64,000 bases of DNA from Escherichia phage JS98: the sequence record NC_010105.1; one strand, written 5' to 3'. This document shows positions 4,731-8,842 of the stretch, in pieces; positions within the stretch are counted from its first letter, which is position 1; every line of letters begins with the position of its first letter. A program made the translations under genes and the position numbers. Below the pieces are notes generated by a model. The model did not search any database and was not told where the DNA came from. It saw only the letters and a program-made list of their open reading frames with translations.

Positions 4731-5348
4731 TTATTTACGGGTCTTTTCGAACTGTGCTGCGTCACCTGCAAGGCGGCGGGCTTGACGAAGTTTGTTATCA
4801 ATTTCTTCGTGCATAGGCTGGGTATACTTAAGGCCTTCAACCGTCAGGTAAAGACGATAGAGGTCCGGGGTATCTAGGTTGTTAATGTGCTGCCCATTAC
4901 GAAGGGCGTTGAATTCTCGAACGAGTTGTTTAGTTTCGGATTCGATTTCAGAAACCAAAGAAGCCAGCTGGTTATATTTTTTAACAATAGTGCTGGTGTC
5001 GAACTTGATTTTAGGTTTAGGAGCTTCTTTTACAGGCTCTGCTTTAGGTGTAGGTTTCGGCGCTGCAACTTTGGTCTGAGCCGCGGGTTTAGAAACAGGA
5101 GCTTTAGCTGGTTTAGCAGGCTTAGTAGAGCCACCGGCTACGATATCTTTAAAAGCTTTGGAAGCTTTGTAATATTCTTTCTGGCTACTAGTATCAAAAC
5201 CATACATATCATAAACGTTTTTAAAGAACTCGGTAGTGGTTTTAGTCCCGGAAATTTTATCATAAGCAGCTTGCCACATATCTTTAGTCATGCGCACGCC
5301 GGCTTCATTCAGAACGCTTTCGTTCAAAAATTCATTGTAAGTTTTCAT
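4731..5348 (-). CDS. internal head protein (IPIII-like) with capsid-targeting sequence
   Basis: N-terminus MKTYNEFLNE matches T4 IP capsid-targeting sequence MKTYQEFIAE; Pro/Ala/Lys-rich basic segment; late promoter TATAAATA upstream; hairpin terminator downstream. Confidence 0.65.
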   Translation of the reverse strand: MKTYNEFLNESVLNEAGVRMTKDMWQAAYDKISGTKTTTEFFKNVYDMYGFDTSSQKEYYKASKAFKDIVAGGSTKPAKPAKAPVSKPAAQTKVAAPKPTPKAEPVKEAPKPKIKFDTSTIVKKYNQLASLVSEIESETKQLVREFNALRNGQHINNLDTPDLYRLYLTVEGLKYTQPMHEEIDNKLRQARRLAGDAAQFEKTRK

Positions 5349-5376
5349 TATTGTTTCCTGTGTTAATTAACTTATC

Positions 5377-5384
5377 TATTTATA
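5377..5384 (-). promoter_or_regulatory. late promoter TATAAATA (IPIII-like gene)
   Basis: Exact motif on minus strand immediately downstream of terminator hairpin. Confidence 0.55.
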
Positions 5385-5390
5385 CAAAAA

Positions 5391-5412
5391 GGCCCAACCT
5401 TTCGGAAGGGCC
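5391..5412 (-). terminator. rho-independent terminator (repeat copy 1)
   Basis: GGCCCAACCTTTCGGAAGGGCC; U-run on minus strand. Confidence 0.55.
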
Positions 5413-5417
5413 GTAAA

Positions 5418-5972
5418 TCAGTTCTTGTAGAACCGGAACGGGTTCACGTGGAAGGCCAACATAGCTTTAGGGATTTTACGAGACAAAAGACTCTTAAGCT
5501 TCCAGCCACAGTACACGCGAAGGTAAAATGTGATTCCGCCGACCTTAAGATAAGGAACTGAAGCAAATACACCCCAGGCGTCATCATTCCACATCCACAA
5601 CCAACCATGGTGAGCTTTATCAGGAGAACCTGATTCTACGTCAGGATTACCACGATAATGGAATTCCGAGCTACAATCACGGCCTAGTTTATGATAAGCA
5701 AAGTTATAAGCTTTATTTCGCCATAGCCAAGCTACTCTCTGGAGATAAACACCACCAGGCATTTTCCTGATTTTAGCCCAACGTTTAATATGACCTTTAT
5801 CGCCGTCAATTGGATTATCGTATGTCATCATCCAATCAAAACCGTATGGCAATTTACCAGTCTTTTTATTATGAAAAGGAACCACAAAAGGCGCAAGGAT
5901 AACGGCTAGAACCATAGAGATAAAATCTAGTGGGACCAACAGAATCCAACTCAAATATTTTAAAAGTTTCAT
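5418..5972 (-). CDS. membrane-anchored protein (184 aa), late-expressed, unknown function
   Basis: N-terminal hydrophobic helix LSWILLVPLDFISMVLAVILAPFVV; Trp-rich C-terminal domain; AGGAAA SD; TATAAATA late promoter upstream and identical hairpins on both flanks. Confidence 0.6.
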   Translation of the reverse strand: MKLLKYLSWILLVPLDFISMVLAVILAPFVVPFHNKKTGKLPYGFDWMMTYDNPIDGDKGHIKRWAKIRKMPGGVYLQRVAWLWRNKAYNFAYHKLGRDCSSEFHYRGNPDVESGSPDKAHHGWLWMWNDDAWGVFASVPYLKVGGITFYLRVYCGWKLKSLLSRKIPKAMLAFHVNPFRFYKN

Positions 5973-5998
5973 ATTATTTCCTAAGTTAGTTTACTGTA

Positions 5999-6006
5999 TA
6001 TTTATA
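5999..6006 (-). promoter_or_regulatory. late promoter TATAAATA (membrane protein gene 5418-5972)
   Basis: Exact motif on minus strand immediately downstream of terminator hairpin. Confidence 0.55.
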
Positions 6007-6013
6007 CAAAAAA

Positions 6014-6035
6014 GGCCCAACCTTTCGGAAGGGCC
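6014..6035 (-). terminator. rho-independent terminator (repeat copy 2)
   Basis: Identical 22-nt hairpin; U-run on minus strand. Confidence 0.55.
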
Positions 6036-6205
6036 TTTAACCTAGGGTAACCTTGTCGGGGTTCCACCTGCTAGGCAAGTGTTCTGTGCGCCGTTTCAGC
6101 TGTGAGATAAGGGACTTTAAGAGGAACTCATGTACTCCTTAAAGTCGGGTCTTATTCAGGGAACTTCAGTCCGACGACTTACCGGTAGCGACCCGGTTTC
6201 TTGTT

Positions 6206-6839: not shown

Positions 6840-7316
6840 TTAAAGCATATCAAGTGCTTTCACATCAGGGATTTTAATTTCTTCTTCAATAATATACAGC
6901 TTAACGTAAGAAATTACACGGATGAAATCACCATCATATTCACAAGCCATACCAAGGAGCTCAGTAAGGGCTTCATTCAAGTAGTATTCTTCTTCGTCAT
7001 CGTTCAGCAAGGCTTCTAAGTCTTGGATACCGAGGACTTTATCTAAAAATTCAGGAGTCAATTGGCCTGATTTTACACCAGATTCAATGTGGGCAATAAC
7101 CAGATGCTTAACTACGTCCCATTCCGAATTACCACATTTATCCGGGTTGTTGCAATGAGAACCATGGAAAAGTTCTAGGATATATTTGTACTGTTGGATT
7201 TCATGTTCTTCTACGCCAAATACAGTCTGGGTTTTATAGTTATCGCCATCATTTTCCCAGGTTTCAATTTCAATTGCATAACCTTTAGGGATAATTTGTC
7301 CGAATTTAATATTCAT
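6840..7316 (-). CDS. hypothetical protein (about 158 aa)
   Basis: ORF track start 7325 is GTG; ATG 7316 overlaps upstream stop (ATGA coupling). Confidence 0.55.
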   Translation of the reverse strand: MNIKFGQIIPKGYAIEIETWENDGDNYKTQTVFGVEEHEIQQYKYILELFHGSHCNNPDKCGNSEWDVVKHLVIAHIESGVKSGQLTPEFLDKVLGIQDLEALLNDDEEEYYLNEALTELLGMACEYDGDFIRVISYVKLYIIEEEIKIPDVKALDML

Positions 7317-7603
7317 TGTGGCCACATATTAATGTAATCAAGTTTAATAGAAGCAATTTTCAAAGGATTTTTAAAGATGTCATATTCGACCAACCCATTT
7401 TCATTTGCCGTATAAAAAGTAAAGTTAACAGAATTATAGCGTTGGCTGTTAACTTTGAGTTTAACATCGCTTGAACTACGGCCAATATTAACCTGTTGAA
7501 CATCAAGCACAGCATCTTTGCCGTAATTTCGAATCAACAACTCAGCTGCAACCTGATCGGATTTATAGCCATTCTCTGGATTAGTAACCTTAACGTATAA
7601 CAT
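7313..7603 (-). CDS. hypothetical protein (96 aa)
   Basis: ORF track; ATG start directly after upstream stop. Confidence 0.55.
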   Translation of the reverse strand: MLYVKVTNPENGYKSDQVAAELLIRNYGKDAVLDVQQVNIGRSSSDVKLKVNSQRYNSVNFTFYTANENGLVEYDIFKNPLKIASIKLDYINMWPQ

Positions 7604-8005
7604 TTAACCCTCGTCTACAATAGTGTGGGTATTGGCATTAACAATCTGCCACCAGCCAAAACGATTAGAACCGTAAAGAGGCTTATTCTCGTTTTCTTTA
7701 ATGATATCGCGCAGTTCATCTTCAGAGAAGGCTTTAGCGATTAAATCAGTATACCCACCGCGTGGATAATAATTATCACCCGCAAACAAAAGGAAATTTA
7801 CCTTTCCGGAAGGAACATATGCTTCCTTAGGATACTTGTTTCCTGCGTGGTCGACAACTTCAATATAACGGTAAGGAATATCAGTACTTTCAACCCATTG
7901 CCATGCTGCTGCAGGGGATTCAAAAGCATCAACACCTAAACGATTATCTTCATCTTTAGACGGATTATTTTCGTAATCCGCATATACATAATATTCAACG
8001 TTCAT
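7604..8005 (-). CDS. hypothetical protein (133 aa)
   Basis: ORF track; TAATG overlap with upstream gene. Confidence 0.55.
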   Translation of the reverse strand: MNVEYYVYADYENNPSKDEDNRLGVDAFESPAAAWQWVESTDIPYRYIEVVDHAGNKYPKEAYVPSGKVNFLLFAGDNYYPRGGYTDLIAKAFSEDELRDIIKENENKPLYGSNRFGWWQIVNANTHTIVDEG

Positions 8006-8190
8006 TATTCACCTTTAGAGATTTTATCCATAACGAAAGAGATTGAACCAATTAAGAATGCCACTACTAAAGAGATTGTATTCTCGGAAGTTGTAAGCAA
8101 ATCCAACATGAATCCTGCAAACATACTAAAGCCAAAAGCAGTAACGGCGGTCAGTGCAGTAACATTTCTAATTAATTCACAACGTTTCAT
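8005..8190 (-). CDS. small membrane protein (61 aa, 2 predicted TM helices)
   Basis: ORF track start 8202 is TTG; ATG 8190 with GGAGAA SD; early promoter upstream. Confidence 0.5.
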   Translation of the reverse strand: MKRCELIRNVTALTAVTAFGFSMFAGFMLDLLTTSENTISLVVAFLIGSISFVMDKISKGE

Positions 8191-8212
8191 TTTATTCTCC
8201 AATCACTCATTT

Positions 8213-8257
8213 GTTTTGATAGGGCTATAGTATCATCAACTAAAGCCCGTTGTAAAC
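8213..8257 (-). promoter_or_regulatory. early promoter with conserved downstream box
   Basis: Minus strand GTTTAC-N19-TACTAT-AGCCCTATCAAAAC. Confidence 0.45.
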
Positions 8258-8259
8258 AA

Positions 8260-8553
8260 TTATTTTGTAATTTCTTTGATTTTAGAAACTACTTTATCTT
8301 TGGTAAGACCGGAAAAAGTCTTATATTTTGTAAAGTGGATATCATCACCAAGATTAATATAATATTTCTTTTTAACCGTATTGAATGCTATACTAACAGG
8401 TTTACCATTTACTGTAATAGTAATTTGCTGAGCCTTATCAACATCACCTGAGCCAAAGGCTCTTTTAATATCGCTACTAATATCGGCCATAGCCGCTTTG
8501 TTAATGGAATACAAATCTGTCGATTCTTTGATAAATTCTTGATAAGTTTTCAT
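8260..8553 (-). CDS. internal head protein (IPI/IPII-like) with capsid-targeting sequence
   Basis: N-terminus MKTYQEFIKE matches T4 IP capsid-targeting sequence; position next to 57B corresponds to the hypervariable ipI locus of T4-like phages. Confidence 0.65.
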   Translation of the reverse strand: MKTYQEFIKESTDLYSINKAAMADISSDIKRAFGSGDVDKAQQITITVNGKPVSIAFNTVKKKYYINLGDDIHFTKYKTFSGLTKDKVVSKIKEITK

Positions 8554-8578
8554 TTTTTGTTTCCGTTAGGTTGGGTTT

Positions 8579-8621
8579 GTTTTGATAGGGCTATAGTATC
8601 ATGCCTATAGACCTTGTAAAC
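8579..8621 (-). promoter_or_regulatory. early promoter with conserved downstream box
   Basis: Minus strand GTTTAC-N17-TGaTACTAT-AGCCCTATCAAAAC. Confidence 0.5.
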
Positions 8622-8632
8622 ATCTTTTTAAA

Positions 8633-8842
8633 TTATTTTAACCATGAAGAATTTTCAGAGACCCAGCTATCTATATCTGATTGAGGGCCGAAGAAGTAGG
8701 CAACCCCATTAGATAACTCTCCCGAAAGCCAATTTATGCCTTTCAGGCTTTCTTTAAATTCTTCAGGAGTACAAGAAACCTCTATTGCCACCGAAGAGGC
8801 TGACTCCATTGCTTCTGTTAAAAATTCTTTGTATGATTTCAC
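8633..8842 (-). CDS. internal-protein-like small protein with capsid-targeting-like N-terminus (69 aa), GTG start
   Basis: N-terminus (M)[10 protein letters not shown]; first codon GTG overlapping the 57B stop (GTGA). Confidence 0.5.

Follow-up and report, generated by a model that had tools for sequence, protein, structure and literature searches.

Three genes on the minus strand of Escherichia phage JS98 DNA, ORF97 (positions 8260–8553), ORF69 (8633–8842), and ORF205 (4731–5348), probably encode internal proteins (IPs) of a Dhakavirus, that is, proteins packaged in the phage head and injected into the host. The DNA analyzed is a 64,000-nucleotide stretch of sequence record NC_010105.1, called the window hereafter. 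Each candidate begins with a decapeptide like the capsid targeting sequence (CTS) of the T4 internal proteins: MKTYQEFIKE in ORF97 (8524–8553), (M)KSYKEFLTE in ORF69 (8813–8842), and MKTYNEFLNE in ORF205. A sequence-only reading of the window had pointed to these N-termini, and all three are as it described them. The T4 motif named in that reading was also right, as T4 IPII and IPIII start with MKTYQEFIAE↓A (arrow, cleavage) and T4 IPI with MKTFKEF...ITE↓A.

Putative capsid targeting sequences and predicted packaging

A loose version of the targeting motif (.K[STA][YF].[ED][FY][ILVM].E) has three matches in the six frames of the 64 kb, each located at the first codon of ORF97, ORF69, or ORF205. 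The number expected per window is 0.007 (300 first-order Markov simulations, none of which reached three). A still looser scan of all open reading frame N-termini of the window yielded no further credible case. The first 10 residues of T4 IPIII suffice for packaging; mutagenesis in T4 has assigned CTS residues 4 and 7 to targeting and residues 8 and 10 to processing, and the prohead protease gp21 cuts after L/I-X-E (review PMC9026906). All three candidates have Tyr4, Phe7, Ile or Leu at position 8, and Glu10, with Ser or Ala as the next residue. Conservation of the peptide at the protein level is centered on these four functionally mapped positions, with positions 3, 5, and 9 being variable. 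The candidate gp21 sites are IKE10↓S in ORF97, LTE10↓A in ORF69, and both LNE10↓S and LNE15↓A in ORF205. The key CTS residues and the gp21 site are thus the same as those of T4 IPI–III (Ip1–3) and of Ip4–Ip13 of other T-even phages.

The expected partners of the CTS are encoded in the window as well. These are gp21, the expected remover of the CTS (38725–39360, plus strand; Pfam Peptidase_S77, 1.1e-103), and the scaffolding core protein gp22, to which the CTS is expected to bind (39391–40206, plus strand; Pfam T4_CASP, 2.3e-90). The window also codes for gp20, gp67, gp68, gp23, and gp24. The window's gp23 and gp24 have FLTE↓AEIGG and ELLRE↓S at the positions cut in T4, and the specificity of gp21 is therefore evidently retained. 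The mature bodies of the three candidates showed no significant avoidance of [LI]xE (1 observed versus 2.1 expected, P=0.35).

Beyond the CTS, the three proteins share no sequence with one another or with T4 IPI, IPII, or IPIII (no pairwise BLASTP E<0.05), nor with Ip8- or Ip9-like proteins (BLASTP). The earlier description of the bodies as mutually unrelated was thus borne out, and the N-terminal comparison with the T4 proteins that it proposed found likeness confined to the CTS. Dissimilar bodies, and presence, absence, or replacement between close relatives, are likewise seen in the IPs of T-even phages. T4 IPI, IPII, and IPIII belong to PHROG 4363, 7857, and 5341, respectively, whereas the candidates belong to PHROG 27873 (ORF97), 23867 (ORF69, 1.8e-42), and 2280 (ORF205, 1.4e-59), all of "unknown function." No record examined labels any of the three as an IP. 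In size and charge, predicted mature ORF97 (87 amino acids, 9.6 kDa, pI 9.6, after cleavage at IKE10↓S) is near T4 IPII (90 amino acids, pI 9.56), and predicted mature ORF205 (190 amino acids, 21.4 kDa, pI 9.7, net charge +12) is near T4 IPIII (183 amino acids, pI 9.65).

By comparison with T4, the three proteins would reach the host cell as follows. ORF205 would be made from its own late promoter, ORF97 from an early promoter cassette of sigma-70 type resembling the one at T4 ipI, and ORF69 by translational coupling to the upstream gene 57B (an Acb1 family gene), from a GTG overlapping the 57B stop codon. The 10-residue CTS would bind the gp22 scaffolding core during prohead assembly, and gp21 would then cut after I/L-x-E within the head, leaving a basic 87-amino acid (ORF97), an acidic 59-amino acid (ORF69), and a basic 190-amino acid (ORF205) protein. 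By analogy, these mature proteins would be injected along with the DNA to act against pre-existing defenses. Internal proteins act before the expression of any phage gene. T4 Ip1, Ip2, and Ip3 each inhibit a distinct GmrSD-type modification-dependent nuclease (PMC12373910; PMC9391042), and because of this the likeliest targets of ORF97 and ORF69 would be strain-specific type IV nucleases or similar first-response defenses. By this analogy, ORF97 and ORF69 are most likely strain-specific inhibitors of such defenses. ORF205, in which a conserved helical N-terminal domain and a Lys-rich disordered linker are combined with a variable helical C-terminal domain, is more probably an internal protein that associates with DNA in general, and its C-terminal domain may be an effector. 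For Dhakaviruses, DNA of the arabinosylated 5-hydroxycytosine type is predicted (PMC13326640), and since their DNA modification is thus predicted to be different, the targets of the candidates may be defense systems not yet matched to an inhibitor.

Several points weigh against assignment of the three genes as IPs. No virion proteome or N-terminal data were found in the literature for the three proteins or their homologs; a virion proteome exists for phage phiR1-RT, but this phage has no ORF205 homolog. (Phage fHy-Eco03 was set aside as a proteome source, being a small-genome phage with 81 predicted genes that is not T4-like.) Mature ORF69, predicted to be 59 amino acids in length (6.4 kDa) after cleavage at LTE10↓A, is acidic (pI 4.1) and has no counterpart among the three T4 IPs. 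Neither ORF97 nor ORF69 has its own late promoter, and the closest one on the same strand is at 12254–12261; T4 ipI likewise has no nearby TATAAATA and has the same architecture of early promoter and hairpin as ORF97. Lastly, no known fold or family was found for the bodies by Pfam, NCBIfam, PDB sequence search, or Foldseek. The Pfam and NCBIfam searches gave only sub-threshold low-complexity matches (e.g., TonB Pro-rich region), and PDB sequence searches with the 97- and 59-amino acid proteins gave only noise. The AlphaFold2 model of ORF97, from a two-sequence alignment, had a mean pLDDT of 50 and was too poor for a fold search. A search with the ORF205 model had a best PDB match of E 0.94 and found only its own family in BFVD; likenesses of this model to Fur, histone, and winged-helix folds were weak and not significant, and were not used. 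A word-indexed protein search had little depth for proteins of this size, giving 16, 5, and 1 clusters. Because the bodies match no known fold or family and the ORF97 model is too poor to search, an anti-defense function is proposed by analogy. To these points are added the start codon of ORF69 and the wide conservation of ORF205, each considered below.

The three genes would be an instance of a phenomenon known since 1994, and are good candidates for injected anti-defense proteins of this long-known kind. What is new are three families of IP candidates not annotated as such; corrected gene calls for ORF69, which very likely starts at GTG, is missing from the annotation of JS10 and MN04, and is truncated in that of CLB_P2; and, in the interval from e.8 to the tRNA genes, a candidate third IP locus that houses a conserved CTS family predicted to be expressed late.

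Variability of the 57B–trna.4 locus

ORF97 (97 amino acids, ATG start) and ORF69 are located between 57B and trna.4, a known IP locus, with ORF97 occupying the slot of T4 ipI. We surveyed this locus in eleven Dhakavirus genomes, the window included. ORF69 is present in eight of these. The ORF97 slot is filled by ORF97 in three (the window, JS10, and MN04), by a true IPI homolog (MKTYQEFSKSQKVAPITE↓ASVMSEVIALNKGREGKP...) in two (dhaeg and CLB_P2), and by Ip8-like and Ip9-like genes in the other six, with an extra Ip7-like gene in WG01. By this pattern of presence, absence, or replacement among close relatives, the candidate IP genes are non-essential. The sequence-only reading had placed all three candidates in a hypervariable IP locus next to 57B. 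This holds for ORF97 and ORF69, as the content of the locus differs between near-identical phages, but not for ORF205, which lies 3 kb away across the tRNA cluster and belongs to a conserved family of several genera.

The borders of these exchanges are sharp. Compared with phages carrying Ip8- and Ip9-like genes, homology ends at the ORF97 stop codon (8260–8266) and resumes inside the CTS-coding sequence (8524–8532), and the exchanged unit is therefore the ORF97 body alone. ORF69 is either present or missing as an exact unit (8641–8842), flanked by the imperfect repeat TTAAA(G/A)T(G/A)A, which the last codons of 57B and of ORF69 make up. T4-type phages have promoter-early stem-loop (PeSL) cassettes that mediate modular shuffling (PMC2839356, PMC4122927). 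Three copies of a PeSL-like 63-nt cassette (GTTTACA...TG.TACTAT followed by a stem-loop) occur in the region, at 4627–4689, 8211–8273, and 8577–8639, upstream of e.8, trna.4, and ORF97, respectively. The last copy contains a TG-extended sigma-70-type early promoter for ORF97 (TTTACA-16-TACTAT; 8593–8620, minus strand), and T4 ipI likewise has an early promoter and hairpin cassette upstream. As with PeSLs, ORF97, trna.4, and e.8 are flanked by repeats that combine a sigma-70-like promoter with a stem-loop, and gene replacement among sister phages is bounded by the 63-nt cassettes. Unlike in PeSLs, one exchange boundary is the CTS-coding sequence itself.

This boundary raises the issue of whether the shared N-terminus has been kept only as a DNA-level recombination linker, no longer targeting these proteins to the capsid. 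At the DNA level, the CTS-coding stretch is a direct repeat of 43 nt shared by the three genes, and the homology breakpoints of sister phages fall exactly there. A homolog of the ORF97 body that starts with MKQQQQIKILE and has no canonical CTS is found near motA and a topoisomerase gene in Yersinia phage MHG19 (1453–1752), so that the body can exist without the signal. We nevertheless consider the linker explanation highly improbable, as the CTS is conserved as protein despite divergence of codons. The window's ORF69 differs from that of IME281 or IME08 in its codons (TCA/ACC, AAA/AGC/AAT, and TTT/TTC) and keeps the four mapped residues. Likewise, distant members of the ORF205 family retain the peptide pattern and a second cleavage site even though their DNA is unalignable. 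Capsid targeting remains the preferred explanation of the shared N-terminus.

ORF97 is rare, being found in three phage records and one protein cluster among 5.8 billion. Distant relatives occur in Edwardsiella phage PEi20 and Enterobacter phage CC31; these have the CTS and are located at the other IP locus, between e and denV. From these relatives and the MHG19 homolog, the ORF97 body seems to exist both with and without a packaging signal.

Two more CTS genes are present beside e and denV in IME281 (NC_055740.1). The first (5514–5912) encodes a 132-amino acid protein starting MKTYNEFIAE..., annotated as hypothetical (PHROG 15461), and the second (6430–6729) a 99-amino acid protein starting MKTYQEFITE.... 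With these two, a Dhakavirus genome would therefore have about five or six CTS genes.

The probable GTG start of ORF69

ORF69 (69 amino acids) differs from the T4 IPs in its translational coupling to 57B. The sequence-only reading had it begin at a GTG overlapping the 57B stop codon, and the GTG at 8842–8840 does overlap this codon as GTGA. Expression would depend on 57B transcripts and on this coupling, as read from the sequence, and a Shine-Dalgarno sequence (GAGGA; 8849–8853, minus strand) is located 6 nt ahead of the GTG, within the 3' end of 57B. An ATG occupies the identical base in IME281, IME08, WG01, EcS1 (Kagamiyamavirus), Gravdalen (Winklervirus), CF1, and Merlin (Moonvirus), overlapping the stop codon of the upstream gene as ATGA. 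The GTG allele is carried by five of the eight Dhakaviruses with ORF69 (the window, JS10, MN04, CLB_P2, and dhaeg), and the A/G change is synonymous in 57B (AAA to AAG, Lys). Homologs in Dhakavirus, Kagamiyamavirus, Winklervirus, and Moonvirus keep the pattern MK[ST][YF]x[ED]F[LIV]xEAME with differing codons; M1, K2, F7, E10, A11, M12, and E13 are kept in nine homologs from these four genera. The GTG start is well supported, given that orthologs have an ATG at the same base, that the GAGGA lies 6 nt upstream, and that the five GTG genomes all keep the CTS codons intact.

This gene is treated differently from one public record to another: it is left unannotated in JS10 and MN04, and the CLB_P2 annotators began it at the ATG of codon 12 (Met12), giving a 58-amino acid form. 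These records accord with another explanation, that phages with the GTG allele translate ORF69 only from the internal ATG (MESASS...), yielding a 58-amino acid cytoplasmic protein that is not packaged, or that the allele is being lost. GTG is a weaker start than ATG and lowers the efficiency of initiation, and the in-frame ATG follows just 11 codons downstream; along with the choice of the CLB_P2 annotators, these count as well among the points against packaging of ORF69. However, the 11 codons before Met12 are intact in all five GTG genomes, where they still provide Y4, F7, L8, and E10, and the sole difference seen among them is synonymous (TTT/TTC). The CTS codons of EcS1 are nearly the same, the sole exceptions being the ATG start and a single synonymous codon for Thr (ACT for ACA), and nothing comparable to the GAGGA before the GTG is found ahead of Met12. 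Furthermore, phages isolated in Bangladesh and in Denmark carry the GTG allele, as does a phage from sewage that was grown on E. coli 55989. An exclusive start at Met12, or loss of the allele, thus appears unlikely, and translation from the GTG with an intact CTS is preferred.

ORF205 and the e.8–tRNA region

ORF205 (205 amino acids) is located between e.8 and the tRNA genes, outside the known IP loci (57B–trna.4 and e–denV), and its orthologs are found there too. Besides this third locus, it differs from the T4 IPs in having a predicted two-step propeptide (MKTYNEFLNE↓SVLNE↓A), a Pro/Ala/Lys linker, and conservation across genera. The late promoter and the Pro/Ala/Lys-rich tract claimed in the sequence-only reading were both confirmed. 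The promoter is a T4-type TATAAATA at 5377–5384 (minus strand), 28 nt before the ATG, and is conserved before orthologs in three other genera. It abuts a GC-rich hairpin (5386–5417), the terminator of the upstream gene; another hairpin (4707–4728) directly follows the ORF205 stop codon. The arrangement of a hairpin and then TATAAATA 20–45 nt upstream is found in Dhakavirus, Mosigvirus, Tegunavirus, and Karamvirus, with CHI14 having GATAAATA. The tract, residues 74–115 (5004–5129, minus strand), is 71% Pro, Ala, and Lys, and is modeled as disordered (pLDDT 30–38). In the AlphaFold2 model (mean pLDDT 64), a helical N-terminal domain (residues 20–72, pLDDT about 85) precedes this linker, which is followed by long C-terminal helices (pLDDT 55–78).

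The ORF205 family has 142 phage records from at least six genera, including Dhakavirus, Mosigvirus, Kagamiyamavirus, Winklervirus, Tegunavirus, Karamvirus, and others; the names seen in databases are all "hypothetical protein." An exhaustive HMMER search for the family gave only 14 clusters. Full-length members all keep M..[YF]x[ED][FI]LxE and a second [LI]xE before a conserved [AS]GERMTK, with such starts as MKTYNEFLNE, MYTFNEFLAE, MLKFKEFISE, MLQYNEFLKE, and MLNFKEFITE. The family, conserved in about 140 genomes, is probably head-packaged. A member occurs in 10 of the 11 Dhakaviruses, as a 202–207-amino acid form in eight and a divergent 154-amino acid form in two (WG01 and QL01).

If ORF205 is indeed packaged, its function has still to be considered. 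It is quite possible that ORF205 is a structural internal protein, which neutralizes or organizes packaged DNA or aids head assembly, rather than an inhibitor of host defenses. Conservation in at least six genera and in 10 of the 11 Dhakaviruses suits a general role better than a strain-specific inhibitor, and in this respect weighs against an anti-defense assignment as well. ORF205 has a net charge of +12 and a 42-residue Lys/Pro/Ala linker of a type common in non-specific DNA binders; a late promoter of its own precedes it, and in size and pI it nearly equals T4 IPIII. On the other hand, JS10 lacks ORF205 entirely, and the protein is therefore dispensable. In addition, some members (P0016, P0025, and P0032) have another C-terminal domain in its place, as expected for an effector under diversifying pressure, and T4 IPIII, long held to be structural, proved to be a specific GmrSD inhibitor. 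Between acting as an effector and associating with DNA in a general way, the odds for ORF205 are about even.

More tentatively, PHROG 2280 may constitute an unrecognized conserved class of capsid-targeted proteins in non-T4 Tevenvirinae, expressed late and composed of a two-step propeptide, a constant helical N-terminal domain, a DNA-binding linker like a histone tail, and an exchangeable C-terminal effector. Such proteins might enter with the DNA and counter defenses that recognize the arabinosylated cytosine derivatives predicted for these genera, and the e.8–tRNA region would be a third IP locus.

The cassette of hairpin terminator and late promoter that precedes ORF205 occurs a second time, ahead of the DUF7338 gene (5418–5972). 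The two copies are 94% identical (hairpins at 5386–5417 and 6009–6040; TATAAATA at 5377–5384 and 5999–6006, minus strand). ORF205 is missing in JS10, and the DUF7338 gene is missing in IME08, CLB_P2, and dhaeg. This suggests that the cassette mediates gene gain and loss, analogous to early-promoter PeSLs but differing from them in that the repeated hairpin flanking ORF205 and the DUF7338 gene is joined to a late promoter.

Genomic setting

The region (4400–9400) is best matched by Dhakavirus genomes, which are T4-like coliphages of the JS98/JS10 group. MN04 is closest (97.7% identical across 100% of the query), with IME281, UP19, and JS10 next. The gene order is that of T4: e.6, e.8, tRNA genes, trna.2–4, the IP locus, 57B, 57A, 1, 3, 2, and 4. 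The 57B gene (8839–9294, minus strand), upstream of ORF69, is a clear member of the Acb1 family of anti-CBASS phosphodiesterases (Pfam PF23474, 8.4e-59), and the locus therefore joins a known anti-defense gene to candidate IP genes, as in T4; none of these candidates resembles Acb1. Together, 57B and the candidate IP genes would form a compact anti-defense island. RefSeq records label 57B "RNA ligase" despite its strong match to the Acb1 family.

An Rfam scan of 4300–9400 matched three tRNAs and nothing else. A homolog of the T4 stable RNA rnaD (species 2) adjoins the tRNA-Arg gene at 6090–6205 (minus strand). It has long identical blocks at both ends in common with NC_000866 (71053–71171), belongs to no Rfam family, and has an unremarkable folding energy.

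Elsewhere in the window, a tandem array of five small paralogous open reading frames (74, 69, 65, 93, and 96 amino acids) is located at 1048–2290 (minus strand). Their products have a conserved C-terminus, Trp-x-Ser-Ser...Cys (WVSSSAMC, WVSSSSEC, WVSSSYEC, WFSSSMSC, and WYPSSC), and the IME08 record likens two of the five to RB69 ORF136c and ORF137c.

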